Of a stretch of 36,460 nucleotides of DNA, positions 5,490 through 27,622 are shown piece after piece. The notes beneath the pieces were generated by a model. The model was given only the letters and a program-made list of their open reading frames with translations. It made no database searches and was not told the DNA's origin. A program made the position numbers and the translations under genes. Each line of letters begins with the position of its first letter. Positions within the stretch are counted from its first letter, which is position 1. This stretch comes from an uncultured Desulfobacteraceae bacterium (GTDB lineage Bacteria; Desulfobacterota; Desulfobacteria; Desulfobacterales; UBA11574), in the NCBI GenBank assembly GCA_964551515.1, contig CAZKDT010000001.1, positions 1 to 36,460 on the forward strand, in the 5' to 3' direction.

Positions 5490-6086
5490 TTATCCGAGTT
5501 CTTGAGCGGCGGAGAATCCGAGATCGAAGGCCTTTAAGTTGGAGTCGACAAACGCTTTTCGGGTTCTTTTAATTATTGCTTCTTTGACATTTTCGGCGGA
5601 CAGGGGAACGGTATGGGTTTGAATCAAGGCACCCAGCAAGACCATATTTACGGACAGAACGTTTCCGGCTTTAATTGCAATGGCCGCTGCATCAAAGGCA
5701 ATAAGCTTTGCCGTTTTCTTCCGAATCAACTCTTGGAGCACATCCAGATCCGGATAAACACTTTTCCCCGTTGTCACTGTAAAAGACGGAAGCTTGGCCA
5801 GATTTGTAATAACAACCGTATTTAAATTGCATTTATTTAAGGCCCGCAACGTTTCTGACGGTTCAAACCCTATCAGTACATCCGCCTCGCCGTCCGAAAT
5901 TACGGTGCTTTGGGCACCCCCAAACACAATTGAGGATTCAACAACACCGCCCCGTTGAGCCATGCCGTGTATTTCACTCATACGCACAGGAATATCTGAA
6001 AAGAGTGCGGCTTCTCCAAGAACCCTGGAAGCCAAAAGATTCCCCTGTCCGCCCACCGCCACTATTATTAATCTTGTTGTATTCAT
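5490..6086 (-). CDS. iorB: indolepyruvate:ferredoxin oxidoreductase subunit beta
   Basis: 198 aa. The N-terminus IIVAVGGQGNLLASRVLGEAA plus EIHGMAQRGG is typical of the gamma-type domain of IorB. It lies downstream of iorA on the same strand. Confidence 0.88.
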   Translation of the reverse strand: MNTTRLIIVAVGGQGNLLASRVLGEAALFSDIPVRMSEIHGMAQRGGVVESSIVFGGAQSTVISDGEADVLIGFEPSETLRALNKCNLNTVVITNLAKLPSFTVTTGKSVYPDLDVLQELIRKKTAKLIAFDAAAIAIKAGNVLSVNMVLLGALIQTHTVPLSAENVKEAIIKRTRKAFVDSNLKAFDLGFSAAQELG

Positions 6087-6175
6087 TTAGCAATCCAATC
6101 TTTGAGTTGTCGTGATAGTGTAGTTCCTTAGTGCTCTGATTCGTAAGTTCGATGACATATTTTTTTTATATTGTT

Positions 6176-6404
6176 TCACCGCCCGCTTTGCTTGAGACGC
6201 AAAGGCCGCAGAGTTAAATAATATTTCTTTTGCCGTTGAGGGGACGGCAAAAGAAAACAACTCAACCTTTATAAAAGTAATGTTGTATTAAAATACAAAT
6301 GGTTATTTCTTTATCCCACAGGGATGCATGTTTTTGCTTTCCGGCCTCTCAGCGGAAAGCAAAAAAGAAACAAATTCTCTGGGACCTCTGCGACTCAGCG
6401 GTGA
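6176..6404. repeat. approx 230-bp composite palindrome, family F4 (ctctgcggcctttgcg-type arms with internal hairpins)
   Basis: The arms 6176-6213 and 6377-6404 are reverse-complementary with indels. Each half carries its own hairpin (ttttgccgt..acggcaaaa at about 6227-6253; tttgctttccg..cggaaagcaaa at about 6333-6363). Similar cttcgtggccttcgtg-type motifs occur at 36-62 and 10048-10074. Confidence 0.7.
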
Positions 6405-6461
6405 TTTTAAGTTATCCAATTATAATACGATAACGTATTTGTAACTGTTCACGGATTTTTT

Positions 6462-6520
6462 AAAATCACAAATTACAAGCACCAAATTACAAATAAATCC
6501 CAAATCTCAAGAATCAAATT
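6462..6520. repeat. AT-rich intergenic repeat, family F3, copy b
   Basis: Matches 5365-5421. A degenerate inverted copy lies at about 6640-6700 (tttgaatttcggttattgtg...ttatttggaatttcc). Confidence 0.8.
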
Positions 6521-6738
6521 CAAAACATCATGCCAAAGTCAGGCATGAATCAAAAATTCCAATGATCTTAACTATTCCGATCTTTCCAGTATTGATAAAA
6601 ATATATTTTTCAATTCGTCTGTCTTGCTTCAATGTGCTACGGTTTCGAATTTTGAATTTCGGTTATTGTGTTTTTTTTGTTATTTGGAATTTCCATTAAT
6701 TCAAAGACGCTGTGAACGGATATACAATTTCTAAACCC

Positions 6739-8607: not shown

Positions 8608-8622
8608 AGTACCTTCCTTAAA

Positions 8623-8776
8623 TTTGACGGTCTCGTAAAAAGTCCAACTTCTGTGTTGTGCTGCATTTCGCAATCATTCAACGTACGAAAAGTACGCTCC
8701 CTACGGGACCGGCGGATAGCCGATGATTACAAAATTTGCACGCCTTGAATTTGAACTTTTTACGAAACCGTCTAAA
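8623..8776. repeat. MITE-like palindromic element, family F1, copy b (inverted relative to copy a)
   Basis: The arms are tttgacggtctcgtaaaaagtc (8623-8644) and gaactttttacgaaaccgtctaaa (8753-8776). The interior is collinear with the reverse complement of 1161-1316. Confidence 0.8.
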
Positions 8777-8779
8777 TCA

Positions 8780-8802
8780 GACTTTTTACGAGTTCATCAA
8801 TC
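8780..8802. repeat. solo arm of family F1
   Basis: gactttttacgagttcatcaatc lies directly after copy b. Confidence 0.6.
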
Positions 8803-9176
8803 TTGATATTACAGTTTTTATTTTTACGAACCTGCTTCAAAACGTTTTAGTTTGGTCAAGATCAAGGCAGGCGAAAATTTTAACCACAGGAATACATTAA
8901 GTATTTTGATGATTAAAATTTGAGCCCAACACAGAGATTGGTCAAAATGGGACGTTTTGAAATTGACTCTTCCGTATGATATTATAAAGGATTCATATAT
9001 CAGCACCCCTTGACGTGTAAAGAATTTTCTTCAGTCCAACAAGCAATTGAAAAAACTTTACAAAGATCTAACTATGATTTATAATATTAATTTTTTTAAC
9101 ACTTATATTCCGATCACAAAATTCAAAATTTAATTTTTCGGTCTTTAAATCATTTTTGCCATGAAATGAGGTTTGA

Positions 9177-10695: not shown

Positions 10696-12657
10696 ATGTT
10701 AGAGAAGAAAAAAGGCGTGGACATCGTAATTGAAATCGGAGGTATCACAAGTTTTGAAGCGGCACGCAAGCTTTTTGAAAATAAATTGGACCCAACCAGT
10801 CTGTCTCGGATACAAACAATAACACATTCCGAAGTCGTTATTAAAATCGCCAATGCCATCGCCATGTGTGAGCCGGACGCGGTTTTTATCAATACCGGAT
10901 CTAAAGAAGATAAACAAAAGATCAGGGAAATGGCTATAAATAAGGGAGAAGAAGCCGCCCTTCCCATGGAAAACCATACCATCCATTATGATCTCAAATA
11001 TGAACAGGGCCGCATCATAGACCGTACGTATTATATCACCAATCCCGGAGAACATGTCAGTTCTCTGGCCAACAAAATGGACAGGGCCGAAGCGCTCATG
11101 GATATCCGGGATAAAATGACGGGGATTATGCAGGGGAAAACCATGATCATAGGGTTTTATATGCGGGGTCCGGTGGGTGCACCTGTATCCAATCCCGCTC
11201 TGGAGATTACCAGCTCATTATATGTGTCACACAGCGCGGAAATTCTTTACAGAAATACGTTTTCCGATTTCGGCAAAGAAGTTGACCGTCTGAAACATTT
11301 TTACACCAATATCCACAGTGAAGGCCTGAACCGGCTTGAAGATCTGCCCAACGCACGGGTATTTATGGATCGAAGTTATCAAACCACCTACAGTTTTAAC
11401 TGCACGTATGCCGGCAATACGTTGCTGTTGAAAAAAGGAAACCACCGGTTTTCCGTGGACAAGGCCGTGTATGAAAACAGGGGCAATGAGCTATCGGAAC
11501 ATATGTTTATTACCGGTATAGACGGACCCGGGGATCGGATAACCTGGTGTGCCGGCGCTGCCCCCAGCGGATGTGGGAAAACCACCACTGCCATGGCAGG
11601 CAACCATTTTATCGGTGACGATCTGGCACAAATGTGGATTGATGAAACCGGCGCCATCTGCTCAATAAACCCGGAATGCGGTATTTTCGGTATTGTGGAA
11701 GATGTAAACTGGGAAGGGGATCCGAATCTTATGGAGCTTCTTCGAAAGCCCGGAACAGAAGTGATCTGGTCTAATGTTCTCATTGATGACAACGGAATTC
11801 CCCGCTGGACCGGGGACGGTGAAGATCCCCCGCTTAAGGGAATAAATTTTCAAGGGCCATGGGAACCGGGGATGACCGATGAAAACGGAAAAGAAATCCC
11901 CATATCCCATCCCAATGCAAGATGTACCTTGAACTCGTCAGGCCTGGCCAATTATTCCGAAAGGTCGGAAGATCCCAACGGTGTGGAAACCCGAGTGATT
12001 ACCTACAGCGGTAGAGACAGCGATACCATGCCGCCGGTCTGGGCAGCTAAAAATTCGGACCACGGTGTGGTGATCGGCGCGTGTATTGTGTCTGCCGCCA
12101 CCGCCACAGAAGTGGGCGCAACCGGCGTTAAAAGGGCGCCTTGGGCCAACGCCCCCTTTATCCCGGGCGCATTGGCCGATTATATGGCTGCTCAATTTCA
12201 GTTTTTTGGGAATGAAAAAATTGCAAAAGATAAAAAACCGGTACTGGCGGGATTGAATTATTTTCTGACCCATGAATCCAGGGGCGGCACTTCCAAAAAA
12301 CTGCTCGGAGAAAAAAGAGATGTAAAAGTCTGGCTGGCCTGGCTGGAAAGACATGCACACAATGACGTCGATGTTATTAAAACCCCCATCGGCAATCTTC
12401 CGAAATTTAATGATCTGAAAAACCTTTTTCACTCTATCATCAACAAAGAATATACTAAAGATCTATATATTAAACAGTTTTCTTTGTATATTGACAATAT
12501 TGTTGCCAGAATAGACATGCAAGCAGAAGCATATGGAAAAGAACCTGATCTCCCGGAAAGGCTGTTCGAAGTTCTTAACAAACAAAAGAAAGGTCTCATG
12601 GCGTTAAGAGACAAATATGGTCCGATTGTGACGCCGTCCCAGCTTGAGGAATTATAA
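10696..12657 (+). CDS. pckG: phosphoenolpyruvate carboxykinase (GTP type)
   Basis: 653 aa. The P-loop-like APSGCGKTTTAM, the downstream GDDLAQMW, and the overall length and order are as in GTP-PEPCK. A strong RBS (AAAGGAGAAACAGC) precedes the ATG. Confidence 0.88.
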   Translation: MLEKKKGVDIVIEIGGITSFEAARKLFENKLDPTSLSRIQTITHSEVVIKIANAIAMCEPDAVFINTGSKEDKQKIREMAINKGEEAALPMENHTIHYDLKYEQGRIIDRTYYITNPGEHVSSLANKMDRAEALMDIRDKMTGIMQGKTMIIGFYMRGPVGAPVSNPALEITSSLYVSHSAEILYRNTFSDFGKEVDRLKHFYTNIHSEGLNRLEDLPNARVFMDRSYQTTYSFNCTYAGNTLLLKKGNHRFSVDKAVYENRGNELSEHMFITGIDGPGDRITWCAGAAPSGCGKTTTAMAGNHFIGDDLAQMWIDETGAICSINPECGIFGIVEDVNWEGDPNLMELLRKPGTEVIWSNVLIDDNGIPRWTGDGEDPPLKGINFQGPWEPGMTDENGKEIPISHPNARCTLNSSGLANYSERSEDPNGVETRVITYSGRDSDTMPPVWAAKNSDHGVVIGACIVSAATATEVGATGVKRAPWANAPFIPGALADYMAAQFQFFGNEKIAKDKKPVLAGLNYFLTHESRGGTSKKLLGEKRDVKVWLAWLERHAHNDVDVIKTPIGNLPKFNDLKNLFHSIINKEYTKDLYIKQFSLYIDNIVARIDMQAEAYGKEPDLPERLFEVLNKQKKGLMALRDKYGPIVTPSQLEEL

Positions 12658-12694
12658 TATTAACCCGGTTTTTAACGTAATTTGCAGCGGCCGC

Positions 12695-13906
12695 ATGCTG
12701 GTCGCTCTTGTGATGGGTTTTGCCTGCGGTTTGCCGCTTCTTCTGACCATAACCGTATTACAGGCATGGATGAAAGAGCAAGGGGTGGATCTGACCGTGA
12801 TCGGAATGATCTCCCTCGTGGGTCTGCCCTATACGTTGAAGTTTCTCTGGGCGCCGGTTCTGGATCGTTTTACGCTCCCTTTTCTGGGCCGCAGAAGAGG
12901 CTGGCTTTTGGTGGCTCAGGCGGCCTTGATGGTGTCGATATCCGGTCTGGGCTTCACTGATCCCGGGAAGAATCCATGGATGATGGCCGTTGCGGCATTT
13001 CTGGTAACCTTTTTCAGCGCCTCGCAGGATATTGTCGTTGATGCCTATCGAAGAGAAGATCTCCCGGATCAAGAGCTGGGGATGGGCTCTTCTCTGTATG
13101 TCAACGGATACCGGGTTGGAATGCTGCTCGCTTCCGGCGGCGGCCTGATTATGGCAGATCACATGCCGTTTTTCATGGTCTATCAGATCATGGCGGCCTG
13201 TATGCTGCCTGGTGTTGTCACCACGCTTCTGGCACCGGAACCCAAAATTGACGTGGGGACTCCGGAAAGCATGAAGCAAGCGGTTGTTGATCCGCTGATC
13301 GAATACTTCAGCCGGCGGGGTGCGTTATGGATACTGGCCTTTATTCTTTTTTATAAAATCGGCGACACAATGGCCAGCGCCATGACCATACCGTTTTATT
13401 TGGATATAGGGTTTTCAAAAACCCAGATTGGCGCCGTAGTAAAACTGTTCGGCTTCTGGGCAACCATGGCAGGAACTCTGATCGGCGGGATGATCATGCT
13501 CCGCCTTGAGATCAACCGAAGCTTATGGATTTTTGGGTTTCTCCAGGCCGTATCCACCGCCGGTTTTGCAGTTCTGGCGCAGGTGGGTAACAGTCTTCCC
13601 CTATTGTCGACAGTTATCGCTTTTGAGAATCTCAGCAGCGGATTGGGGACCGCCGCTTTTATCGCATTCATGGCAAGCATTACCCACAAAAAGTTTACCG
13701 CCACACAATATGCGCTGCTCAGCAGCCTCATGGGAATTCCCAGGGTGATGGCTTCGGCGCCGACCGGTTTTTTTGCCAAGAACATGGGATGGGCAAGTTT
13801 TTTTATTGCCTGTACACTTATCGCTGCTCCCGGCATGCTCCTTCTTTTTAAATGTGCGCCCTGGAATCCTAACCCGGACAATCCGGAATTAATTATTGAA
13901 TATTGA
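12695..13906 (+). CDS. ampG: AmpG-family muropeptide MFS permease
   Basis: It is polytopic and carries GFACGLPLLLT..LQAWM and LGRRRGW motifs as in AmpG. The start is uncertain: ATG 12695 is chosen here, but the track's TTG 12644, which overlaps the pckG end by 14 nt, is possible. Confidence 0.85.
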   Translation: MLVALVMGFACGLPLLLTITVLQAWMKEQGVDLTVIGMISLVGLPYTLKFLWAPVLDRFTLPFLGRRRGWLLVAQAALMVSISGLGFTDPGKNPWMMAVAAFLVTFFSASQDIVVDAYRREDLPDQELGMGSSLYVNGYRVGMLLASGGGLIMADHMPFFMVYQIMAACMLPGVVTTLLAPEPKIDVGTPESMKQAVVDPLIEYFSRRGALWILAFILFYKIGDTMASAMTIPFYLDIGFSKTQIGAVVKLFGFWATMAGTLIGGMIMLRLEINRSLWIFGFLQAVSTAGFAVLAQVGNSLPLLSTVIAFENLSSGLGTAAFIAFMASITHKKFTATQYALLSSLMGIPRVMASAPTGFFAKNMGWASFFIACTLIAAPGMLLLFKCAPWNPNPDNPELIIEY

Positions 13907-13961
13907 ATATTTGTAGAAGTCGCTTCGCTCCGTCATTTTTTTGATAGGTCTTTTTAAAATT

Positions 13962-14052
13962 GAAAGAATGTAAGTTCTCAATAAATTATGGATTTGGCTC
14001 AATATCACCATTTGATACACCAGAACTTATTGAGATGTTACGAAAGAATTCC
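13962..14052. mobile_element. approx 89-bp hairpin MITE, family F2, copy 1
   Basis: cgtaagttctcaataaattatgg ... ccagaacttattgagatgttacg. There are 3 mismatches to copy 2 over the 77-nt core, and the arms are mutually reverse-complementary. Confidence 0.85.
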
Positions 14053-14177
14053 TTAAATTTTCAATATTCAATCGAAAATATTCAATCATTTGAAGATAGG
14101 AAAAATAGCCCAATTAAATTTTTTGCCACAAAATACAATAATTTCACAATTAAGAAACAAAAGAGCGAGATGAAACT

Positions 14178-15929
14178 ATGGAAAATAAAAAAGTCATCGC
14201 GAGAATCGAAAATCTTCAGCAGATGAGGAAAAAAATTGTTTCCATGTCCCCTGAAAACGCCTTGAATACTATTTTAGATTTGCCCCAACCCTCTGCCCTG
14301 ATCCATTCCTTCTCTGAAGAGGATTTTTATTTTTTAATCCATGATATCGGGCTCGAAGATTCTCATCCCCTGTTATCCCTTGCATCCGCCAGACAGTGGG
14401 AATACATCGTAGATCTTGAAGTTTGGCAAAAAGATAGAATCGAATTGAAATCGGTTACCCGATGGTTTGACCTGTTATTTAAAGTAGACCCGAATCGTTT
14501 TATCAAGTGGTTCCTTGACCAAAAAACCGAATTCATGGAATTTTATCTGTTCAAAAATATCGAAGTTAAAATTAGAAAGCATGATCAGGATCCATCGGAA
14601 TTTGGAAATGAGTTTTTCACATACGACGATATGTTTTATGTAAGGTTTCTTGACGATACCTTCGAACTTGAAACCGAAGAAACAGAGTCGGACGAAACCA
14701 TAAAAAAAGATCGCGACGCGTTTCTTTCACAATTTTTCAAAACCCTTGCAGCCTTCGACCATATCACATATCAAAAAGTTCTGCTGGAGGCTTGCAGCGT
14801 AATTCCCGCAGAAGCCGAAGAAGAAGCTTATCGACTCCGCAATGTAAGACTGGCGGAAAAAGGGTTTCTGCCATATGAAGAAGCCATTGGCATATATCGG
14901 CCGTTGAAACCGGAAAATTTTGAAAAGCAGGATACAAAATTTATCACAGCAGATCCTGACCGAAAACTGTTTTTTCCTGTTCCTTTCTATCATTCCGGAA
15001 TGCTGGACCAAGAAAATCTTTTTACCGCTGCCTTGAAAAAAATAAAAACAGATGATGTTATTGAACAAATTCAGACTGAATTTGCGGGACTGTGCAATCT
15101 TATCATCTCTGCGGATCGGAAAAATATCAGAGAAAAACAAGAACTGAAAACTATTGTCAAAAAGGTCTCCGGATACCTGAATATCGGACTTGAACGGTTA
15201 TCTCCCGACAACAGGGCTCCGGATGCCGGACATTGCGCACTATTGATACGCAACCACCCACTTTCCAATATTTTCAAGGTCGGATACGGCATCGCCCTTG
15301 AACTAAAATGGAGAGCCGAAAAATGGCAAGAAAAAAGCTGGTTTGAAAAACAAGGTCTGCTGCTGAGCTTCTGGGGCGAACAATGGCTGGGGGTGCTGGG
15401 AGGACTGTTGATTAAAAAACCGCTGTTTTTTGACAACTATACAACAGGGGTACTCTACAGGGAATTTATATCCATGAAAGACATACGGGCAACGGAGAAC
15501 GTATTGAGTGAAATTATCCTTTTTGACGATCTCTTTTCTTTAATGGCAATAAACCCCGAACCGGTTATAGACCGGTTTCTGACCTATAAAAATTTTATCC
15601 TGACTCTCTGGGCAAGAGATTACCTGGGCCTGTCAGGGAAAATTGAACCGTTACATCTTGATGAGTTCAAACGCCTTTTTGATGATTTCTGGGCAGGCAA
15701 AAAAAAGCCTTATAAAATAAAACTGCCCATGAAAGAATCGTTTTTAAGCTGGCTTTCAGAGCTGACCGGTTTCACCAATTACGACATTTCCCGAAAACTG
15801 GGGCATGTTCTGGAAAATCTTTTCGGCGAGATTGAAAACGAATACGGTGAAGTGTCAAGCAAAGATTTTGACCCCAGATATATTAACCTGTTTCTGGTAA
15901 AAAGAAAAATAACTAAATTAAAAAATTAG
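14178..15929 (+). CDS. conserved hypothetical protein, 583 aa; from memory possibly the DUF6178 family, with an MgtE-N-like helical N-terminus
   Basis: A long intact ORF with no catalytic or nucleotide-binding motif visible. It is helical, acidic and Trp/Phe-rich. The family assignment is unverified. Confidence 0.75.
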   Translation: MENKKVIARIENLQQMRKKIVSMSPENALNTILDLPQPSALIHSFSEEDFYFLIHDIGLEDSHPLLSLASARQWEYIVDLEVWQKDRIELKSVTRWFDLLFKVDPNRFIKWFLDQKTEFMEFYLFKNIEVKIRKHDQDPSEFGNEFFTYDDMFYVRFLDDTFELETEETESDETIKKDRDAFLSQFFKTLAAFDHITYQKVLLEACSVIPAEAEEEAYRLRNVRLAEKGFLPYEEAIGIYRPLKPENFEKQDTKFITADPDRKLFFPVPFYHSGMLDQENLFTAALKKIKTDDVIEQIQTEFAGLCNLIISADRKNIREKQELKTIVKKVSGYLNIGLERLSPDNRAPDAGHCALLIRNHPLSNIFKVGYGIALELKWRAEKWQEKSWFEKQGLLLSFWGEQWLGVLGGLLIKKPLFFDNYTTGVLYREFISMKDIRATENVLSEIILFDDLFSLMAINPEPVIDRFLTYKNFILTLWARDYLGLSGKIEPLHLDEFKRLFDDFWAGKKKPYKIKLPMKESFLSWLSELTGFTNYDISRKLGHVLENLFGEIENEYGEVSSKDFDPRYINLFLVKRKITKLKN

Positions 15930-16573: not shown

Positions 16574-17206
16574 TTATGCCTTCATATAAATACCAATTCC
16601 CGCATTTTTAATTTTGCCCCGTTTCTTCAGAATCTTAGCATTGTCGTATATTTTTCTTCTATTGAAACCGGTTTTTTCCATCAGTGTAGAGACATCTACG
16701 CCCTTTCTGTGTCTTTTGATGAAATCAAAAACAGTATCAACTGCTGTTAATTTGGCGGGTTTTTTAGCAGCTACCTTTTTAGCAGGAGCTTTTTGTGTGG
16801 CTACCTTTTTAACTAGTTTTGCTTTGGCCACAGTTTTTTGTTTTTCAAGTTTTCCGACCGTAATAATCATTTTGTCAACTTGCTTTGAGAGTACCTTTAT
16901 TTCTCTGTTAATCACTTGCAGGTTCTTTTTTAGATTTTTTGTCATTTCATTCTCCTCCTTTGTAAGTTCAAAAATTTTCCTACTGGAAGGTACTTGTTTA
17001 ACCCGATATTCCAGTTTAAGAGTATCGCTTTTCGTCATTTCAGAACTGACAATAACTAATTTAACAGGCCTCCGGGATCTTGTATATTTGGCACCCCTGC
17101 CTGAATTATGTGCTGCCAGCCTGTTTTTCAGGTTGTTGGTTATCCCACAATACAAAGATTCATCAGAACACCGAATCAGATAAACAACCCATTCCCTTTT
17201 TTTCAT
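16574..17206 (-). CDS. GIY-YIG nuclease-superfamily domain (UPF0213/YhbQ-like) fused to a coiled-coil, a Lys/Ala-rich histone-H1-like tract and a C-terminal wHTH-like domain
   Basis: The N-terminal 80 aa read WVVYLIRCSDESLYCGITNNLKNRLAAHNSGRGAKYTRSRRP...LEYRVKQ, which is GIY-YIG. Residues about 125-160 read AKAKLVKKVATQKAPAKKVAAKKPAK. The C-terminus reads FIKRHRKGVDVSTLMEKTGFNRRKIYDNAKILKKRGKI. Confidence 0.8.
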   Translation of the reverse strand: MKKREWVVYLIRCSDESLYCGITNNLKNRLAAHNSGRGAKYTRSRRPVKLVIVSSEMTKSDTLKLEYRVKQVPSSRKIFELTKEENEMTKNLKKNLQVINREIKVLSKQVDKMIITVGKLEKQKTVAKAKLVKKVATQKAPAKKVAAKKPAKLTAVDTVFDFIKRHRKGVDVSTLMEKTGFNRRKIYDNAKILKKRGKIKNAGIGIYMKA

Positions 17207-18030: not shown

Positions 18031-18471
18031 ATGACTCCAAAAAAAGAACTGCAATTCGCTTATGGCCTCATTATTATTCTATTTTTAGTGGGTGTTATAA
18101 GCTATGCAGCCTTTCCTGCCAAGACCCCGGATAAACCCATAAGAATAATGTACAAGGGAGTTGCAGGAAAAGTTTTATTTGACCACAAAACACATGCTTC
18201 AGAAGAGGGTTATGCTCTTTCCTGTAGCGACTGTCATCATCATCCCGAGGATGAGGACTCATCACTTCGAGCTTGCGGTGACTGCCATCAAGTCCCGGCG
18301 GAAGGCCAGGCATTGCCTGAATCTTGTACGGAATGTCATGATACTGATGAGGTCGAAGACACAGAAATCATAAAAAAGACTGATGCGTTTCATTCCCAAT
18401 GTGAGGAGTGCCATCAGGAAAGCGGAGCTGGTCCGGAAGAAAACAGATGCAGTTGGTGTCATGTCTCATAA
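18031..18471 (+). CDS. membrane-anchored multihaem cytochrome c (class III/c3-like, five CxxCH)
   Basis: It has an N-terminal hydrophobic helix (LIIILFLVGVISYAAF), the c3-type VLFDHKTH, and then CSDCH, CGDCH, CTECH, CEECH and CSWCH. The RBS GAAAGGA lies 10 nt upstream. Confidence 0.88.
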   Translation: MTPKKELQFAYGLIIILFLVGVISYAAFPAKTPDKPIRIMYKGVAGKVLFDHKTHASEEGYALSCSDCHHHPEDEDSSLRACGDCHQVPAEGQALPESCTECHDTDEVEDTEIIKKTDAFHSQCEECHQESGAGPEENRCSWCHVS

Positions 18472-18551: not shown

Positions 18552-19850
18552 ATGATAAAAAGATCCTTTATCGGTTTGGCAAAACCCAGGATAGAATATG
18601 AGGCTCTGGACGTTACCGTGCCGGAGCCCAAAATCATTCCAACTTCAAAAAAGGTTACGCTTTTATTAAACGAAATCTATGACCCGTTTGGCCAAAAAAA
18701 GGCTGTGTTATTAAAAAAGGATGATTCGGTTAAAACCGGTCAGAAGCTTTCTCTTTATGACGGCAGTGATGCCTATGTCATTTCCAGCGTTACCGGAACC
18801 ATATCTTCCATATCTTCTTTTTTGGGAGAATTTGGCCGTTCTTATACCGCCATTTCCATAGATGTTGCTGAAGATGAAGAGCTGGATGAACAATTCAAAG
18901 CCCTGTCCGTGGAACCTACCATGGATATTGCCAAAGATTATTTGTCGTTTATTCCCGGTGATCCACCGGCAAGTCTTTTTTCCAATGCCAGCACATCACC
19001 ATCCATAGATACCATCGTTATTTGCGGAGTTGATAGTGATTTATTAATTACCGCCAATCAGCATGCCCTGATGTCCGATGAAAAAGCAATCCAAAAAGGA
19101 GTTCGTATTTTAAAACAACTCACCGGAATTGAAAACATTATCATGGCCGCCCCTGAGCATCTGATGCAGAACGCTGGTGTAAGTGGCGCCCAGGTAAGCA
19201 TTGTGGATACAGAATATCCTGCGACACTTCCGCGCATGATCATGCAAAACGTCCTGGGAAAAGTGGTGCCTGCCGGAAAAAGCTGTGAAGATATGGGCGT
19301 ATGCTTTGTCAGTGCCGAGGCGATAGCCTCCATCGGCACAGCATTTGACCAGGGTCACATACCGCTTTTCAAAAAGTTCAACCTGATCAAAAAAGACGGA
19401 AACTCGGTAATGATATCGGCCCGAATTGGAACACCGGTCCATGAAATTTTTTCCGCCTGCGATGTTACCGTAAATGAAAAAGATCGTATTATCTTAGGCG
19501 GGCCCATGACCGGTTCTTCTATTTATTCGGAGCATCACCCCATTCAACCCGACACCGATGCCGTTATGATTCAGGACGGTAAAAACCTGGCGCTGGTTTC
19601 AGACTATCCGTGCATTAACTGCGGAGAATGTATTCGCATCTGTCCGGCAAAAATCCCGGTGAACATGCTGGTCCGATTTTTAGAAGCCGGACAATATGAA
19701 CAAGCCGCAGAAGATTACGATCTTTATTCCTGCGTTGAATGTGGTCTTTGCAGCTTTGTCTGCGTATCGAGAATGCCGATCTTGCATTATATAAAGTTGG
19801 CGAAGTATGAACTTGGCCGGATCAGTACAGCGGAGGCAACAAATGCTTAA
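18552..19850 (+). CDS. rnfC: RnfC-like subunit (2x[4Fe-4S]) with divergent flavin/NADH region
   Basis: It is collinear with RnfC/RsxC. GGPMTGSS, CINCGECIRICP and CVECGLCSFVC are retained, but the GxGGAGFP and ECEPY positions read GDPPASLF and VDSDLL. Confidence 0.85.
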   Translation: MIKRSFIGLAKPRIEYEALDVTVPEPKIIPTSKKVTLLLNEIYDPFGQKKAVLLKKDDSVKTGQKLSLYDGSDAYVISSVTGTISSISSFLGEFGRSYTAISIDVAEDEELDEQFKALSVEPTMDIAKDYLSFIPGDPPASLFSNASTSPSIDTIVICGVDSDLLITANQHALMSDEKAIQKGVRILKQLTGIENIIMAAPEHLMQNAGVSGAQVSIVDTEYPATLPRMIMQNVLGKVVPAGKSCEDMGVCFVSAEAIASIGTAFDQGHIPLFKKFNLIKKDGNSVMISARIGTPVHEIFSACDVTVNEKDRIILGGPMTGSSIYSEHHPIQPDTDAVMIQDGKNLALVSDYPCINCGECIRICPAKIPVNMLVRFLEAGQYEQAAEDYDLYSCVECGLCSFVCVSRMPILHYIKLAKYELGRISTAEATNA

Positions 19851-20802
19851 TCAGAAAAAATTCATCGTTTCACACGCCCCCTTCTGGCATGACGGGAGCA
19901 CAGTAACCGCCCGGAGTTATAATATGATAATTGCTGCGCTGCCTGCGGTGCTGTTTGGTTTTATGAGCTACGGCATCCCTGCGGTGGGTGTGATTTCACT
20001 CTCTATTTCCTCTGCCATTGTCTGGGAACTGTTGTTTAATAAAATATCAAAGCAAACGATCAGCATCGGAGACGGCAATGCAGCCCTGATCGGCATTCTG
20101 TTTGGGATGCTGTTGCCGGCGACATCTCCATGGTGGCTGGTTATAACCGGCACCTTTGTTGCCGTGGTTATCGGCAAACAGATATTCGGCGGGATCGGTG
20201 GCAATCCTTTCAACCCGGTCCTTGTCGGCCTTGCTATACTGATGCTGTCCTGGAAAGATTTTTTTGATTTTAATGAAGCTTTGATAAACTATGATCTCGG
20301 TTTTGCAATGGTCTACCCTCTTTCCGCCCTCAAACATTTAGGCACATCCGGTATTGATGCCTTCAACACAGCCGGTCTTCTGATGGGGCAGCAGTCAGGA
20401 GGCATCGGAGCAACCTTTGGACTGGGCCTTATCCTGGGCGGAATCTATCTTATCATCAGAGGGTTTATCAGATGGGAAATATCGGTATCATTCCTGGCCG
20501 GTGTATTTATAACCGCTCTGTTTTTCAATATTTCCGATCCTGCCCGTTACGCAGGACCTATTTTTCACCTTTTAACCGGTTATACACTGATCGGAGCGTT
20601 TTTTCTGGCCACGGAAGACTCTTCTTCACCGGTCAACTTTATTCCCATGCTTATTTATGGCGCCGGCGCCGGGATAATGACGGTGCTTATAAGAAATATC
20701 GGCGCCTATATTGATGGCGTAGTATTTGCCATCCTGCTGATGAATCTTGTAAATCCACTTTTGGACAAAATCAGGCCCAAAGCGCTTGGAAAGGTGGTTT
20801 AA
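19843..20802 (+). CDS. rnfD: RnfD subunit
   Basis: Polytopic, with GKQIFGGIGGNPFNP and FFLATEDSSSP (NqrB/RnfD family). The start is set at the ATG at 19843, with GGAGG 6 nt upstream and an 8-nt overlap with the rnfC stop. Confidence 0.9.
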   Translation: MLNQKKFIVSHAPFWHDGSTVTARSYNMIIAALPAVLFGFMSYGIPAVGVISLSISSAIVWELLFNKISKQTISIGDGNAALIGILFGMLLPATSPWWLVITGTFVAVVIGKQIFGGIGGNPFNPVLVGLAILMLSWKDFFDFNEALINYDLGFAMVYPLSALKHLGTSGIDAFNTAGLLMGQQSGGIGATFGLGLILGGIYLIIRGFIRWEISVSFLAGVFITALFFNISDPARYAGPIFHLLTGYTLIGAFFLATEDSSSPVNFIPMLIYGAGAGIMTVLIRNIGAYIDGVVFAILLMNLVNPLLDKIRPKALGKVV

Positions 20803-20803
20803 C

Positions 20804-21397
20804 ATGCGTGAATTGATAAAAATGGTTGTCGTTCTCACTGTTTTGGCCGCATTCTCCGGCGGCTTGCTTGCCGGTCTTCGGAATGGAACGGCTGCTCAGA
20901 TTGAAAAACAGCAACTTGAATTTGTTAAAGGACCCGCCATCAAGAAAATTCTTGAAGGTGTGTCCAATGATCCCATTTCCGACCGGTTTAAAATATCGGA
21001 TGGAGACATGGAAAGAAGTTTCTTCGTGGGCAAATTTGACGGCAAGGCCAAAATGGTTGCATTTGAAAGTTTCGGAAAAGGGTTTGCCGGTGAAGTTGGC
21101 CTGATGGTGGGTATCAACTTAGAGACCGATAAGATTGTCGGCATAGGGGTTACCACTCACAGTGAAACCCCCGGGCTGGGAGCAATGGCAAAAGATGATC
21201 CCGGTTTTGTCGCTCAATTTAAAGGTTTTTCTATAACTGAACCCATTAAAGTCACTAACGACGGCGGGCAGGTGAATGCAATCAGCGGCGCCACAATTAC
21301 TTCCCGGGCGGTTTGCGCGGCCGCTACCGACGCCGGCAAAGTGTATCAAAAGCTGAAACCCCAGGTTTCTGAAAAAATAAAGGAATTTAACAAATAG
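20804..21397 (+). CDS. rnfG: RnfG subunit (FMN-binding)
   Basis: It has an N-terminal anchor helix and the flavinylation motif SGATITS. The ATG at 20804 is 1 nt after the rnfD stop. Confidence 0.9.
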   Translation: MRELIKMVVVLTVLAAFSGGLLAGLRNGTAAQIEKQQLEFVKGPAIKKILEGVSNDPISDRFKISDGDMERSFFVGKFDGKAKMVAFESFGKGFAGEVGLMVGINLETDKIVGIGVTTHSETPGLGAMAKDDPGFVAQFKGFSITEPIKVTNDGGQVNAISGATITSRAVCAAATDAGKVYQKLKPQVSEKIKEFNK

Positions 21398-21407
21398 GGA
21401 GATCAAG

Positions 21408-21998
21408 ATGGCTAAGACGATCACTCAGGAATTTACCAAAGGATTGTGGGCGGAAATACCGCCGTTTCGGCTCGTGCTGGGTCTGTGTCCGGTGTTGGGT
21501 GTCACCACAACCATGGAAAATGGAATCGGAATGGGTTTGGCCACAACATTTGTCCTGTTATGTTCAAATATTCTGGTTTCGGCATTGAGAAACATCATTC
21601 CTCCAAAGGTAAGAATCGCCTGTTTTATCATCATTATTGCAACGTTCGTTATCGTCGTGGAACTGGTGATGCAGGCCTATGCTTATCGGCTGTTTCTCAA
21701 ACTGGGTTTGTTTATCCCCCTGATCGTGGTGAACTGTATTGTTCTGGGACGTGCCGAAGCATTTGCATCCAAAAACAATCTTCTGCTTTCAATGGCCGAC
21801 GGCCTGGGCATCGGCATTGGATTTACCCTTTCCCTGGCTGCGCTGGGTGCGATACGGGAGATTTTCGGAACCGGTACTTTTTTCGGGGCATCGGTATTCG
21901 GGGCTTCATACCAGCCCTTCACATTCATGATTCAGGCGCCGGGTGCATTTGTTAGTCTCGGGTTGATGCTTTGCATTATGAACCTGTTTGAGAAATAA
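21408..21998 (+). CDS. rnfE: RnfE subunit
   Basis: LVLGLCPVLGVTT and LIVVNCIVLGRAEAFA are typical of the RnfE/NqrD family. Confidence 0.92.
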   Translation: MAKTITQEFTKGLWAEIPPFRLVLGLCPVLGVTTTMENGIGMGLATTFVLLCSNILVSALRNIIPPKVRIACFIIIIATFVIVVELVMQAYAYRLFLKLGLFIPLIVVNCIVLGRAEAFASKNNLLLSMADGLGIGIGFTLSLAALGAIREIFGTGTFFGASVFGASYQPFTFMIQAPGAFVSLGLMLCIMNLFEK

Positions 21999-22012: not shown

Positions 22013-22594
22013 ATGAACGAGCTGGGCTATTTCTCAATAATTATCAGCACAATTTTTGTTAACAACATTCTGCTGGCCAAGTTTCTGGGCAACTGTCCGT
22101 TTCTTGGCACATCAAAGAAAATGGAAACTGCTGTGGGTATGGCCATGGCAGTAGTTTTTGTCCTGGTGATGGCAGGAGCCATTACATGGGTGATCTACCA
22201 TCTATTTTTGGTGCCGTTTGATCTGGTATATCTCAGAACCATCGCATTTATCCTGGTCATTGCATCTCTTGTTCAGTTTGTTGAGTTGTTCCTGAAAAAA
22301 AGCATTCCCGCCCTGTATGCCGGACTCGGCATCTTCTTGCCGCTGATTACGACGAACTGTGCGGTGTTGGGCGCTTGTGTCATAAACATCGATGAAGAAT
22401 TAGGCTTTATGAAGTCGCTTGTCGCATCGTTTGGGTTTGCCGTGGGTTTCGGTGTTGCGCTGATTCTTTTTGCAGGTGTCCGAGAACGAATTCTTTTGGC
22501 CAGGGTTCCAAAACCGTTCCAGGATACGTCCATCGGACTGATCACCGCCGGAATTCTTTCTCTTACATTTTTTGCTTTTAAAGGGATGGTGTAA
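22013..22594 (+). CDS. rnfA: RnfA subunit
   Basis: LGNCPFLGTSKK and LPLITTNCAVLG are typical of the RnfA/NqrE family. Confidence 0.92.
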   Translation: MNELGYFSIIISTIFVNNILLAKFLGNCPFLGTSKKMETAVGMAMAVVFVLVMAGAITWVIYHLFLVPFDLVYLRTIAFILVIASLVQFVELFLKKSIPALYAGLGIFLPLITTNCAVLGACVINIDEELGFMKSLVASFGFAVGFGVALILFAGVRERILLARVPKPFQDTSIGLITAGILSLTFFAFKGMV

Positions 22595-22596
22595 GG

Positions 22597-22659
22597 ATTG
22601 ATGGTTGTTGATTGAAGAATTGTCGGATCATCTATTAGAAAAAATAGAATTCCATCAAT
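22597..22659. other. nested AT-rich palindrome in the rnfA-rnfB spacer
   Basis: attgatgg (22597-22604) pairs with ccatcaat (22652-22659), and there is an inner tctat/ataga hairpin. Further tcaat/attga copies run up to the rnfB RBS. Confidence 0.4.
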
Positions 22660-22707
22660 TTTCAATATTAAAGAGTCAATCATCAATATGTAAATAAGGA
22701 GGTCAAT

Positions 22708-24801
22708 GTGTTAACAGCTCTTTTGTTTATGTTGGGCTTGGGTGCAGCATGCGGACTCATGCTGAGTGTTGCCTCAAAAGTTTTTTATGTCTATGAGGAT
22801 CCCCGAATTGCCGAGGTAGAAGCATTTATGGCCGGCGCAAACTGCGGAGGTTGCGGATATACCGGATGCTCCGCCGCAGCTGTTGCCGTGGTTGCCGGCG
22901 AAGCGCCCCCCAGTGTCTGTATCGTTGCCGACGCTGAGGCCGCAGCTAATATCGCCGCTATTATGGGCGTGGATCCGGGTACGGCGGAGCCCTTACTTTC
23001 CTACAACACCTGTACGGGCGGTGATCGCGCCCCCGATAAATATTATTATATGGGAATTAACAGCTGTCAGGCCCTTGCCACCTTGTATGGGGGCAAACGA
23101 GAATGTCCGGTAGGATGTCTGGGGTTGGGCGACTGTGTCAGGGCCTGTGCTTTTGATGCCCTTAAGATGGGACCTCATGGATATCCGGTTGTGGATGAAA
23201 TGAAATGCGTGGGATGCGGTGCATGTGAAAAAGTCTGCCCCAAGGATATTATGGAAATCAAAACCATGTCCCAAAAGCTGCTTCATCTCAATCAGTATGA
23301 TGATCGTATTGCCCCCTGCCAGCAGACTTGTCCGGCCGAAATTGATATTCCCAGATACATTTACCAAATCAAGAACGGGGATTACGAAGGAGCGGTAAAC
23401 ACAATCAGGGAACGAAATCCCTTACTGTTATCCTGCGGCCGGGTCTGCCCCCATCCCTGTGAAGATAAGTGCCGCAGGGGCATTGAAGACGAACCGGTTT
23501 CCATCAATCAGTTGAAACGGTTTGTTGCCGATTATGAAATGAATTCAGGACGTCGTTTTCCCGTATCCGTGGCCCCTTCCACCGGTAAAAAAGTGGCGGT
23601 CATCGGTGGAGGTCCGGCCGGACTAAGCTGTGCTTTTTTTCTCCGCCGTTTGGGCCATGATGTTACGATTTTTGACGCTATGCCTAAACTCGGAGGTATG
23701 ATTCGGTATGGAATTCCAGAATATCGACTCCCCAAAGAGGTGCTTGCATGGGAAACCGATGGGATTTTAAAGATAGGAATTGAACACAAGCCAAACATAA
23801 TGCTGGGCCGTGATTTTGACATCGGATCACTTATAGCTGCCGGATATGACGCCGTGTTCTTGGGTATCGGCGCATGGAAAGATTACACCCTGCGTGTTGA
23901 AGGTGAGGATCTTAAAGGCTGCTACACCGGAATTAATTTTCTGACCAATTTCGCTTTATGGCAGCAGGAAGACGGAAATGAAGACCGTCGGCCGTATGTG
24001 GGCAACAGATGCGTCGTGATCGGCGGCGGGAACACTGCCATAGACTGTGTGCGGACCCTGATTCGTCTGGGCGCTGAAGAAGTATCCATTGTCTACCGCC
24101 GGACCCGGAAAGAAATGCCTGCTAATGAGGTTGAAATCGTCGCCGCCGAACATGAAGGCGTAAAATTTACTTTTCTGGCTGCGCCCACCCGTGTGATCGG
24201 AGATGAGGACGGCAATGTTACCGGGCTTGAATACCTGAAGATGGAGCTTGGTGAACCCGATGCCAGCGGCAGACGCCGTCCGGTACCCATTGAAGGTTCG
24301 GAGACCGTCATGGATATCGATATGCTGATTACCGCCATCGGCCAGGGTCCGGATGTCTTTTTCAAGAATGAAAGCAAACGTCTTGACCAAGATTTAAATA
24401 TTACCCGCTGGAATACCATTGACTCCGAAGATCCGGTGGCGCTGCAGTCCAGCATACCTTATATTTTTACCGGGGGAGACTCCGCAACCGGTGCGGCCCT
24501 GGTGGTCTCTGCGATTGGCGCTGGCCGACGAGCAGCCCGCTCGATTCATTTATACATTACCGGCGAGAAAATAACGCCACCGGCGAAAACGTTGTTTACG
24601 AATAATATACCAGTGTCAATCTTTGAATCGGTTCCAGGAATAGAAAAATCTTCAAGAACAAAGATGCCGGAACTTCCGGTTGATGACCGTATAAAGTCAT
24701 TTATAGAGGCAGACCTTGTGATCAACGAAGAAGATGCCCTGTATGAATCAGGTCGCTGTTTGCAATGCTGTCTGACCTGCTATAACAAAGATGTTGCCTG
24801 A
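22708..24801 (+). CDS. rnfB: RnfB-like Fe-S subunit fused to a GltD/NfnB-like FAD- and NAD(P)H-binding oxidoreductase (697 aa)
   Basis: Residues 1-190 contain a TM helix, CGGCGYTGC, CPVGCLGLGDCVRAC and CVGCGACEKVCP, as in RnfB. Residues about 195-600 contain CQQTCP...GRVCPHPCEDKC, VAVIGGGPAGLSCAFFL, GGMIRYGIPEYRLPK, VVIGGGNTAIDC and GGDSATG, as in GltD/NfnB. It has a GTG start with AAGGAGG 5 nt upstream. Confidence 0.85.
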   Translation: MLTALLFMLGLGAACGLMLSVASKVFYVYEDPRIAEVEAFMAGANCGGCGYTGCSAAAVAVVAGEAPPSVCIVADAEAAANIAAIMGVDPGTAEPLLSYNTCTGGDRAPDKYYYMGINSCQALATLYGGKRECPVGCLGLGDCVRACAFDALKMGPHGYPVVDEMKCVGCGACEKVCPKDIMEIKTMSQKLLHLNQYDDRIAPCQQTCPAEIDIPRYIYQIKNGDYEGAVNTIRERNPLLLSCGRVCPHPCEDKCRRGIEDEPVSINQLKRFVADYEMNSGRRFPVSVAPSTGKKVAVIGGGPAGLSCAFFLRRLGHDVTIFDAMPKLGGMIRYGIPEYRLPKEVLAWETDGILKIGIEHKPNIMLGRDFDIGSLIAAGYDAVFLGIGAWKDYTLRVEGEDLKGCYTGINFLTNFALWQQEDGNEDRRPYVGNRCVVIGGGNTAIDCVRTLIRLGAEEVSIVYRRTRKEMPANEVEIVAAEHEGVKFTFLAAPTRVIGDEDGNVTGLEYLKMELGEPDASGRRRPVPIEGSETVMDIDMLITAIGQGPDVFFKNESKRLDQDLNITRWNTIDSEDPVALQSSIPYIFTGGDSATGAALVVSAIGAGRRAARSIHLYITGEKITPPAKTLFTNNIPVSIFESVPGIEKSSRTKMPELPVDDRIKSFIEADLVINEEDALYESGRCLQCCLTCYNKDVA

Positions 24802-24829
24802 AACGCATCTTCCAAAAAAAATCAACCAG

Positions 24830-24866
24830 AGCGCAAAACGTAATCTTTGTTTTGCGCTTTTTTGTT
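24830..24866 (+). terminator. rho-independent terminator of the rnf operon
   Basis: A 10-bp stem (agcgcaaaac / gttttgcgct) encloses a 9-nt loop and is followed by TTTTTGTTT. It begins 28 bp after the rnfB stop. Confidence 0.8.
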
Positions 24867-26215: not shown

Positions 26216-27622
26216 ATGAAAAAAATCAACATGTTGTTATCTTTTGTATTTCTTATGGTTATTTGCCCCATATCGGTTTCAAATGCCGCAACCGGGCGGG
26301 AGCTGCTTTTTAATCATGGCAATCCAACATATTCCGGTCTGGTTGCAGCAAACCAAAAGTTTAAAGATGCACTTTCTGCCGAGCCAAATAATCAGGAAGC
26401 CAACTTGTTTTATGCAGTGACACGTATCGGAACTTTTACATTGGAAGAGGGGAGCGGCAGCGGTCTTGAGACCCTGAGGGATGTATTTCAGGCATTTGGT
26501 ATGACCCGCAATAGCAATGAATTCTTTGAAGACGGCTCTCCCTATGACACACCTTCCAAACTTCCCGGTAATTCTCCAAGCGGTGAAGAAATTCGGCAAT
26601 TTTTAGTCGGGCCCTGTGTAACTTTGTTGAATGGTGCCTTGGCCAATCTCGAAAAAATCGGCAGTTCTTTCCAGACAACCCTTACAGCAGACGAAACCGG
26701 AGGTGAAGCCGTTGAAATAGACTACGGAGATATTTTAATGTATAAAGCGATGTTAAATGCCAGTAAGTGTTTATTATTAATCATGTCTTCTTATAATATT
26801 AACGTGGATATAAATGAGGTTGCAAATAAAATAAACAATGATCCATTTAGTATCAACGCGGACTTACTCAATACATATCCGAATTTATTAAAACTTGTTA
26901 ATGGAGGAGGAGAAACACTCCTGTCTGCCGAGGAAGCATTGCTGGCGGCAATCAATAGATATCTTGATGCCTCCACATTTATCAGAACAATAGAAACGGA
27001 CGATCAATTGAATGATTTGATTGCATTTGACCCCGATGACCTTCAGGATGAAGAACTCTTCCGTCAAAACCTGAATGAACTGAAGGCCTCATTAAACGAA
27101 AATAGAACCGCCGACCTGACAGATAATGTTGAACATCTTTTGTTAAATCTCAATTTCTTCTTTGGTTATGGAAGCGGCCCTTATGATTTGCGGGATTTTT
27201 TACCCCTGTTTAATCAATGCAGCAATCCAATAGCCGGCACCGTGGGGCACGGCCTTGGGGATGACGCCACTCTTGGAGGTATCCTGCCTGGTTATTTACA
27301 AGCAGATTGGGGGATTGAATCCGAACCGGGAGCAATCATGTATGTGAACAAGGATGATTGGATATGCGGAGGAAAGGAGCCTTGCAGACAGTCCATAACA
27401 CAAGCCATAGTGGATGCAGGCTGTGAGGTTTTAATAAAAGTGGCCTCTGGAATTTACAACGAAGACATTGTTCTGACTGACCTTAAATTCATCACTCTTC
27501 AGGGAGGATATGATTCCCCGTACGAATCTCAAACAGGGGCCACCACAGCAAATTCCATGATCATCAAAGAAGGAACGATGACGGTTTCAAATATCGTTTT
27601 GGGCCCTGCCGGTCCAAGATGA
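26216..27622 (+). CDS. secreted hypothetical protein (468 aa) ending in what looks like the start of a right-handed beta-helix domain
   Basis: It has a Sec signal peptide (MKKINMLLSFVFLMVICPISVSNA). The C-terminal 85 aa read PCRQSITQAIVDAGCEVLIKVASGIYNEDIVL...ITLQGGY, which resembles the N-terminal cap of pectate-lyase-fold domains. The ORF then stops. Confidence 0.7.
   Translation: MKKINMLLSFVFLMVICPISVSNAATGRELLFNHGNPTYSGLVAANQKFKDALSAEPNNQEANLFYAVTRIGTFTLEEGSGSGLETLRDVFQAFGMTRNSNEFFEDGSPYDTPSKLPGNSPSGEEIRQFLVGPCVTLLNGALANLEKIGSSFQTTLTADETGGEAVEIDYGDILMYKAMLNASKCLLLIMSSYNINVDINEVANKINNDPFSINADLLNTYPNLLKLVNGGGETLLSAEEALLAAINRYLDASTFIRTIETDDQLNDLIAFDPDDLQDEELFRQNLNELKASLNENRTADLTDNVEHLLLNLNFFFGYGSGPYDLRDFLPLFNQCSNPIAGTVGHGLGDDATLGGILPGYLQADWGIESEPGAIMYVNKDDWICGGKEPCRQSITQAIVDAGCEVLIKVASGIYNEDIVLTDLKFITLQGGYDSPYESQTGATTANSMIIKEGTMTVSNIVLGPAGPR

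Follow-up and report, generated by a model that had tools for sequence, protein, structure and literature searches.

We identify the gene at positions 22708-24801 on the plus strand of a 36,460-nucleotide DNA stretch (contig CAZKDT010000001.1 of the assembly GCA_964551515.1, from an uncultured Desulfobacteraceae bacterium; hereafter the window means this whole stretch) as encoding the large RnfB of an Rnf2 ("Desulfobacula toluolica Tol2-type") complex, which, judged from its sequence features, is an already published kind of protein. According to the report on the D. multivorans genome, which credits the first description to the Desulfobacula toluolica Tol2 genome paper of 2013, the large RnfB comprises ~700 amino acids including an NAD-binding domain, with a normal RnfB in the first 200 residues, and the RnfC of Rnf2 lacks the NADH-ubiquinone-oxidoreductase and SLBB domains (PMC5109826). 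In the protein encoded in the window, the RnfB part continues into a permuted module of the NfnL/GltD type. We are nearly certain of the identity and cofactor content of this large RnfB, and consider it probable that the best overall explanation is an Rnf2 large RnfB that bears a StnC-like NADPH module and works in an NQR-like complex. The fusion had been noticed in an earlier reading of the letters alone (the sequence-only reading), which implied that it is a novelty. This part of the reading did not hold, as the literature already describes the fusion, the RnfC degeneration and the cytochrome of the operon, and the permuted module is family-wide and present in solved structures. The gene, its signals and the parts of its product are as follows (window coordinates).

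22696..22702, plus strand: Shine-Dalgarno sequence AAGGAGG, 5 nucleotides 5' of the GTG codon of rnfB (read from the sequence itself)
22708..24801, plus strand: large rnfB (assigned to the Rnf2 type), 697 amino acids, RnfB plus permuted NfnL/GltD-like module (open reading frame, profile matches, orthologues)
22711..22782, plus strand: N-terminal membrane helix, residues 2-25, hydrophobic stretch LTALLFMLGLGAACGLMLSVASKVF (helix 2-25 in the AlphaFold2 (AF2) model; aligns with the RnfB N-terminus of 7zc6_B and 9eri_B)
22834..22923, plus strand: PF04060 [4Fe-4S] domain with C46, C49, C54 and C71 (39.6 bits, cut-off 23)
23104..23250, plus strand: 2x[4Fe-4S] ferredoxin-type domain with C133/137/143/147 and C167/170/173/177 (Fer4_7 and Fer4_9 at 137-181)
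23311..23547, plus strand: N-terminally truncated Fe-S subdomain of the NfnL/GltD-like module, with C204, C208, C247, C251, C255 and K270 (Fer4_20)
23587..24525, plus strand: dinucleotide-binding domains for flavin adenine dinucleotide (FAD) and NAD(P)H, with GGGPAGL at 300, GGGNTA at 439 and YRRT at 463 (Pyr_redox_2 at 294-606)
24640..24780, plus strand: permuted C-terminal tail, residues 645-691, R683-C684-x2-C687-x3-C691 (homologous to GltD residues 12-50)
24828..24860, plus strand: intrinsic terminator closing the operon, with a 13-bp stem, a 7-nt loop and a T-run (sequence)

The open reading frame extends from the GTG start over 697 codons with 0 internal stops, and the uninterrupted frame, its start codon, the AAGGAGG element and the terminator were all confirmed in the sequence as the sequence-only reading had described them. 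Every motif cited in that reading was found as well: on the RnfB side C46/C49/C54 (CGGCGYTGC), C133-C147 and C167-C177; in the part that follows C204-x3-C208-P, C247/C251/C255, GGGPAGL at 300, EYRLPK at 338, GGGNTA at 439 and GGDSATG at 589; and in the C-terminal tail C684/C687/C688/C691. An identical copy of the 697-residue product is encoded on 5 independently assembled contigs, and each of the 3 displayed derives from a different ENA sample. The fusion has over 130 full-length orthologues, with identity down to 35%.

The profile scan, suggested by the sequence-only reading as a check, placed RnfB profiles in the N-terminal part and GltD-like profiles in the C-terminal part. The Pfam matches were PF04060 at 43-72, the Fer4 dicluster at 137-181, Fer4_20 at 202-280 and Pyr_redox_2 at 294-606, and the RnfB and GltD-like models of NCBIfam spanned residues 2-198 and 192-693, respectively. 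With the alignments of homologues in agreement, a single polypeptide composed of a genuine RnfB and a GltD/NfnB-like FAD/NAD(P)H module, as that reading had claimed, is well established. Residues 4-199 align with the RnfB structure 7zc6_B (E = 1e-49), and Fer4_7 matched with 31.6 bits against a cut-off of 27. Among 13 fusions compared (to 35% identity), C46, C49, C54 and all eight Cys of the dicluster domain are invariant, and C71 is nearly so (at least 90%). The scores for the curated RnfB families of NCBIfam stayed below their cut-offs (NF005503, 165 vs 252; TIGR01944, 60.8 vs 68.7), and we regard the protein as a divergent, extended member of RnfB. The module scored 87.9 bits with Fer4_20 and 101.9 bits with Pyr_redox_2 in the Pfam scan, and its scores for the GltD-type equivalogs were likewise below the cut-offs (TIGR01316, 410.6 vs 471.75; TIGR01317, 238.9 vs 447.7; TIGR01318, 351.9 vs 482.95), as was that for NF009410 (496 vs 516).

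The Fe-S subdomain of the module is circularly permuted. The canonical N-terminal order of GltD/NfnB, C-x2-C-x4-C-x3-CP, is absent from the N-side of the module, which carries just C204-x3-C208-P, and in the native order Fer4_20 was matched only over profile positions 30-111 of 113, positions 1-29 being absent from the N-side. When residues 641-687 were moved ahead of residue 200 (de-permuted construct), Fer4_20 was matched over positions 1-111 in a single match with 113.4 bits, compared with 94.5 bits for the native order and 86.4 bits for a control with a shuffled tail. In BLASTP, the same construct aligned with residues 12-470 of E. coli GltD at 37% identity (E = 4e-94), collinearly and with no gap at the junction, and the tail alone matched GltD residues 12-50 (E = 1e-4). 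The structural comparison points in the same direction. The AF2 model of residues 185-697 (66 sequences) reached a pLDDT of 91 (92-97 in the helix of the tail, residues 645-684), and in Foldseek it covered 495-536 columns of 9bov_A, 8oh5_C and 9n5u_A (TMq 0.85), compared with 423-436 columns of the canonical NfnL/GltD structures 5jca_L, 4ylf_B and 6s6s_E (TMq 0.74-0.76). The AF2 model of the full-length protein, based on a 13-sequence alignment, had a pLDDT of 62 and fell below 50 in the tail and the Fe-S regions. The three structures 9bov_A, 8oh5_C and 9n5u_A share the permuted topology, the alignment extending over ~180-690 with the R-C-x2-C tail included, and the topology recurs in 72 of the 80 parsed cluster representatives at 50% identity. 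The suspicion that the extreme C-terminus resembles the opening segment of GltD and that the cluster ligands are circularly permuted was therefore borne out by both sequence and fold. The permuted module begins at the third Cys of C-x2-C-x4-C-x3-CP and ends with the helix and the R-C-x2-C that open GltD/NfnB.

A clue to the origin of this arrangement came from the StnC-type proteins, in which the insertion site can be written as H-x2-D-C, module, C-x5-C. When the module was removed in silico from two of them (P0127 and P0145), a NuoG-type domain, PF10588, was regained across the junction with 32.7 and 38.2 bits (cut-off 27), and PF10588 gave no match in the native order in the one of the two that was scanned. 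Because its removal regains the PF10588 domain, we regard the module of the Stn/Nfn-Bfu subunits as a cassette inserted inside a NuoG-type cluster motif, with both of its ends meeting in the Fe-S subdomain. RnfB has gained the cassette as a C-terminal extension, and the permuted Fe-S subdomain can be traced to the insertion-cassette history of the module.

The residues around the predicted clusters of the module are strongly conserved. C204, C208, C247, C251, C255, R683, C684, C687 and C691 are invariant among the 13 fusions, and K270 is present in at least 90%. The module shares 42-50% identity with the NADPH-binding StnC and the NfnA of Nfn-Bfu; K270 aligns with K170 of StnC and R340, a conserved Arg close to the FAD, with R239 of StnC, and a YRR(T/S)-x2-EMPA segment is common to the RnfB module, the NADPH-binding StnC and E. 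coli GltD. From this kinship the module is predicted to bind NADPH, not NADH. In the literature, K170 of StnC is described as a ligand of the proximal cluster, a role taken by Glu in the bifurcating NfnB. Since K270 would give the proximal cluster of the module a Lys ligand like that of StnC, where NfnB has Glu, the flavin of the module is probably non-bifurcating. By analogy, the distal cluster would be held by C684, C687, C204 and C255 and would pass electrons to the RnfB clusters.

A separate observation concerns residues 200 and 688 of RnfB (nucleotides 23305-23307 and 24769-24771 of the window). Cys200, found in the StnC-type proteins and the distant fusions, and Cys688, found in the Desulfobacterales clade, exclude each other: they occur in 132 and 8 sequences, respectively, and in 0 sequences together. 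The pattern hints that a ligand was exchanged between tail and N-side motif, but it goes back to about one event in evolution.

The genes of the operon are arranged in the order cytochrome c-rnfC-rnfD-rnfG-rnfE-rnfA-rnfB, with rnfB the last. Ahead of rnfB, the operon comprises the following elements.

18031..18471, plus strand: first gene of the operon, for a multihaem cytochrome c of 146 amino acids with an N-terminal membrane anchor, 5 CxxCH and 10 His (Pfam Cytochrom_CIII and Cytochrome_C7)
18552..19850, plus strand: rnfC, degenerate, with NADH and flavin mononucleotide (FMN) motifs gone and two [4Fe-4S] motifs present (profiles and alignment)
19843..20802, plus strand: rnfD without the threonine for covalent FMN (PF03116, 304 bits; alignment to C. 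tetanomorphum)
20804..21397, plus strand: rnfG, periplasmic FMN subunit, SGAT at residues 167-170 (NF045876 RnfG_DVU2794, 256 bits, cut-off 205)
21408..21998, plus strand: rnfE, Cys pair C27/C110 (TIGR01948, 245 bits, cut-off 213)
22013..22594, plus strand: rnfA, Cys pair C28/C116 (TIGR01943, 245 bits, cut-off 229)
22597..22688, plus strand: AT-rich imperfect hairpin in the spacer between rnfA and rnfB (RNA fold of -25.6 kcal/mol, z = -2.4, 5 of 200 shuffles as good)

RnfC scored below the cut-offs of its profiles (TIGR01945, 188 vs 246; Complex1_51K, 31.0 vs 31.2), and NqrA profiles were matched too. In its sequence, GIVGMGGATFP is replaced by IPGDPPASLFS and NAAECEPY by CGVDSDLL, while CINCGECIRICP and CVECGLCSFVC, both with a C-x2-C-x2-C-x3-C motif, are retained. 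The same loss was seen in all 14 of the other Rnf2-type operons aligned, so that the degenerate RnfC suspected in the sequence-only reading, with the NADH and FMN motifs lost, applies to the window and to the aligned relatives alike.

RnfD has lost its site for covalent flavin as well. T153 of C. tetanomorphum RnfD (DGVTTATPL) corresponds to a Tyr in the RnfD of the window (GFAMVYPL), and Glu185 to an Ala. In all of the 18 Rnf2-type RnfD sequences (that of the window and those of L004-L013, L016-L018, L021, L022, L026 and L073), the equivalent of T153 is Tyr, Ala, His or Asp and that of Glu185 is Ala or another residue. The motif Dxx[ST]xA[TS] occurs nowhere in the RnfD of the window or in 16 of its 17 relatives, and the match in the remaining one, L073, lies outside the T153 site. 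The loss of flavinylation is judged from the alignment with C. tetanomorphum and from the missing motif at the attachment site; BLASTP against E. coli RsxD was ambiguous near the flavinylation site due to an insertion. The functional roles of T153 and E185 in RnfD have been described (PMC9588780). We found no mention of the loss of the threonine in the Rnf2 papers, which call the subunits other than RnfB and RnfC "very similar" to the canonical ones. The SGAT flavinylation motif of RnfG is kept in 14 of the 17 relatives. The sequence of the operon cytochrome fits a pentahaem bis-His protein, and its counterparts 5' of rnfC in the related operons bear 4-10 haem motifs.

The stop codon of rnfA (22594) is separated from rnfB by a spacer of 113 nt, and the other gene junctions measure -8, 1, 10 and 14 nt (with ATG starts at 19843 and 20804; the independent contigs give the same gene calls). 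This spacer had been taken as a trace of the replacement of an ancestral rnfB. In the orthologous operons, the length of the spacer is unconserved (~10 to 400 bp), so that its length is no evidence of such a replacement. Because the N-terminal 190 residues represent a true RnfB, the gene is an extension, not a replacement, of rnfB. The hairpin in the spacer may be an intercistronic element for processing or stability.

A fused rnfB follows rnfA in the same gene order at no fewer than 16 related loci, and the arrangement is found in many Desulfobacterales metagenome-assembled genomes (MAGs), Desulfosarcina alkanivorans PL12, Pseudodesulfovibrio/Salidesulfovibrio and Desulfocarbo indianensis. 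The genomes nearest to the window are Desulfobacterales MAGs and Desulfosarcina, and the orthologue in the cultured Desulfosarcina alkanivorans, which has the same fusion, is 68% identical to the product of the window. The search for the fusion in other genomes, also suggested in the sequence-only reading, thus found it to be widespread in Desulfobacterales and beyond, with a degenerate RnfC in the Rnf2-type operons aligned. Some variation in gene arrangement was also observed. In one Desulfobacterales MAG (L013), the fused rnfB (7058-9064) is not behind rnfA but upstream of and apart from the cytochrome c-rnfCDGEA cluster (10907-15422). The divergent fused RnfBs of L023 and L026 (39-41% identical) do come after rnfA.

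Rnf2 has been assigned to the core genome of Desulfobacteraceae and is abundant and constitutive in six strains (PMC11887813); D. multivorans forms it under every condition tested, as detected by proteomics (PMC5109826). The proteomic detection thus concerns cultured relatives of the organism of the window. For the cytochrome c3 of the cluster, it has been proposed that Rnf2 reduces it and that Qrc, menaquinone and Qmo follow (PMC11887813). In combination with the losses described above, a route can be outlined for the complex of the window. With RnfC devoid of its classical NADH site and RnfD of its site for covalent FMN, we suggest that NADPH is the substrate on the cytoplasmic side and enters at RnfB. 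Its oxidation would take place in the fused module, in a position matching that of NADH at NqrF, and the electrons would pass from FAD through the two clusters of the module and the three clusters of RnfB to the RnfA/E centre and then to the FMN of RnfG on the periplasmic side. The multihaem cytochrome c of the operon would be the most likely acceptor from RnfG-FMN, and sulfate reduction would be supplied from there through Qrc, menaquinone and Qmo; the two clusters kept in RnfC could serve as a second cytoplasmic port, e.g., for ferredoxin. We treat the route of Rnf2 from NADPH via RnfG-FMN to the cytochrome, which is drawn by analogy, as a serious possibility with somewhat less than an even chance. 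As the flavin sites of RnfC and RnfD are lost and an NADPH module is present on RnfB, the Rnf2 complex would follow an NQR-like logic. The farther-reaching idea that Rnf2 represents a second, independent NQR-like rewiring of Rnf, in which the flavin sites of RnfC and RnfD are vestigial and the periplasmic exit leads from RnfG-FMN to cytochrome c, is tentative and, in our estimate, rather doubtful. If true, Rnf2 would be an ion-coupled or membrane-potential-driven NADPH:cytochrome c oxidoreductase, and the loading of cytochrome c3, Qrc and menaquinone in complete-oxidising sulfate reducers without periplasmic hydrogenases would be explained.

Several points weigh against this reading of the complex or of its parts. 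Both [4Fe-4S] motifs of RnfC are kept in every operon aligned, which argues that electrons still reach RnfC through RnfD, where a flavin could be bound non-covalently. The operon cytochrome was undetected in the published proteomes (PMC11887813), and our literature search found no biochemical work on any Rnf2 complex, in agreement with PMC5109826 and PMC11887813. The nucleotide preference of the module is assigned by homology alone, and the published papers assume NAD(H). In the AF2 model of residues 185-697, the final 13 residues are of low confidence. The conserved ligand candidates exceed the need, with nine Cys (C200 or C688 counted once) and K270 for eight positions, so that the exact ligand set is ambiguous.

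The kept clusters of RnfC also fit an ordinary ferredoxin:NAD(P)+ Rnf of classical overall chemistry whose pyridine-nucleotide site has moved, in which ferredoxin would be oxidised at RnfC and the electrons would flow in reverse through RnfD, RnfG and RnfA/E to RnfB, where NADP+ is reduced. Rnf2 has indeed been treated as a link between the ferredoxin and NAD(P) pools (PMC11887813). However, the exergonic flow would then run opposite to the outward ion-pumping direction of canonical Rnf/NQR (PMC9588780), RnfD has neither the FMN site nor Glu185, and the cytochrome of the operon would be left without a role. We judge this explanation to be unlikely.

A second alternative assumes that RnfB is bifurcating or confurcating, the FAD splitting the electrons of NADPH between ferredoxin, reached by way of the RnfB clusters, and a high-potential route through the membrane complex or the cytochrome. 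The module is 43% identical to the bifurcating NfnB/NfnL (4ylf_B and 5jca_L), and three partners, namely NADPH, ferredoxin and cytochrome c, would be at hand. Nevertheless, Lys270 takes the place of the Glu of bifurcating NfnB, as in the non-bifurcating StnC/NfnA-Bfu; the nearest relatives of the module form a non-bifurcating cassette; RnfB offers no NfnA-like second path from FAD; and no NfnA-like gene was found among the scanned open reading frames of the window of at least 100 amino acids. We regard a bifurcating RnfB as very improbable.

The gene could also be read as one for FdhB, the beta subunit of a formate dehydrogenase that depends on NADP+, adjoining rnf by chance. Many of the orthologues bear the JGI label "formate dehydrogenase (NADP+) beta subunit", and divergent paralogues with the same architecture and 36-41% identity adjoin a selenocysteine FdhA in L028, L029 and L032. 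Against this, no fdhA was found among the scanned open reading frames of at least 100 amino acids in the window; the gene is the last rnf cistron at the 16 or more loci, with its own terminator; no other rnfB is present there; and RnfB profiles span residues 2-198. We consider this explanation very unlikely. The paralogues at L028 (2714-6100), L029 (4019-9052) and L032 constitute a second class of RnfB-GltD fusions, which have an N-terminal hydrophobic helix and lie outside rnf operons, divergent to an FdhA gene with an in-frame TGA. This FdhA-adjoining class may be the source of the FdhB naming at JGI. For annotation, we recommend that such proteins be named large RnfB (Rnf2), not "formate dehydrogenase beta subunit" or "glutamate synthase small subunit".

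Finally, a fusion created by an error in sequencing or assembly or by a missed stop is excluded for practical purposes by the identical proteins on independent contigs from different samples and the more than 130 full-length orthologues, as well as by the fusion in the cultured Desulfosarcina alkanivorans and the proteomic detection of the large subunit (PMC5109826).

In the remainder of the window, the rnf operon is preceded by a gene for a DUF6178 protein (14178-15929, 570 bits) and, on the opposite strand, one for a GIY-YIG protein (16574-17206), and ~800 bp 5' of the cytochrome gene are non-coding. An open reading frame of 468 amino acids at 26216-27622 has no Pfam or NCBIfam match and is conserved 3' of an lptC-like gene on the independent contigs L001-L003. 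On the minus strand, 5490-8673 encodes a two-subunit 2-oxoacid:ferredoxin oxidoreductase (a POR gamma-like protein and a protein with POR_N and TPP_enzyme_C), and these genes are a possible source of reduced ferredoxin. Scans of the window with Rfam and for tRNA gave no match.

When compared with known systems, the module is closest to StnC of Sporomusa ovata (8OH5) and to the NfnA of Nfn-Bfu from Caldicellulosiruptor saccharolyticus (9BOV) and Thermococcus sibiricus (9N5U), with 42-50% identity over ~180-690. The permuted topology, the Lys (K270/K170), the Arg (R340/R239) and YRR(T/S) are common to them. The setting differs. In StnC/NfnA-Bfu, the enzyme is soluble, and the module lies inside a NuoG/HydA-like subunit and supplies a bifurcating core of the HydBC type. 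In the window, an RnfB anchored in the membrane carries the module at its C-terminus, and the module would supply the membrane core of Rnf. RnfB no longer has the His/Cys flank of the host motif (Q196 and R200 stand there), carries a C-x3-C691 of its own in the tail and stops 6 residues past C691; no NuoG, FdhF or HydBC domains were found in the rnfB frame or its neighbours. Free-standing GltD and NfnB (NfnL) and the N-terminal module of DPD have the same fold and the same cofactors, i.e., FAD, NADPH and two [4Fe-4S] clusters. They differ from the RnfB module in their unpermuted ligand order and in the proximal ligand, which is Glu in NfnB, not Lys. In DPD, the corresponding ligand is Gln. Our literature search for an RnfB fused with glutamate synthase found nothing.

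The Rnf operon of Methanosarcina acetivorans encodes a multihaem cytochrome c, MmcA, which is believed to drain electrons instead of reducing NAD+. That system is different in being archaeal, with a small RnfB, ferredoxin as the donor and no NADPH module. The likeness to Na+-NQR lies in a pyridine-nucleotide flavoprotein at the position of RnfB/NqrF and in an RnfC/NqrA without the FMN and NADH site, and RnfADEG and NqrEBDC form a common core (PMC9588780). However, NqrF is unrelated to the RnfB module, NqrA has no clusters in contrast to the two [4Fe-4S] of RnfC, NqrB keeps its covalent FMN in contrast to RnfD of the window, and the acceptor is likely cytochrome c, not ubiquinone.

With the published Rnf2/Tol2-type systems, the operon of the window shares the RnfB architecture, the losses in RnfC, the cytochrome c of the cluster, the gene order and the Desulfobacterales lineage, and nothing essential differs. 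Rnf2 is part of the core of Desulfobacteraceae, which are responsible for much of marine sulfate reduction. The Rnf2 papers are silent on the permuted motif, on the Lys ligand and the NADPH signature, and on the loss of the flavinylation site in RnfD. What we add here is a module that is probably non-bifurcating, Lys-ligated and of the NADPH type, the loss of the threonine in RnfD, and the possible NQR-like logic of the complex. The window brings no new kind of system but sharpens the picture of the pyridine-nucleotide site of Rnf2.

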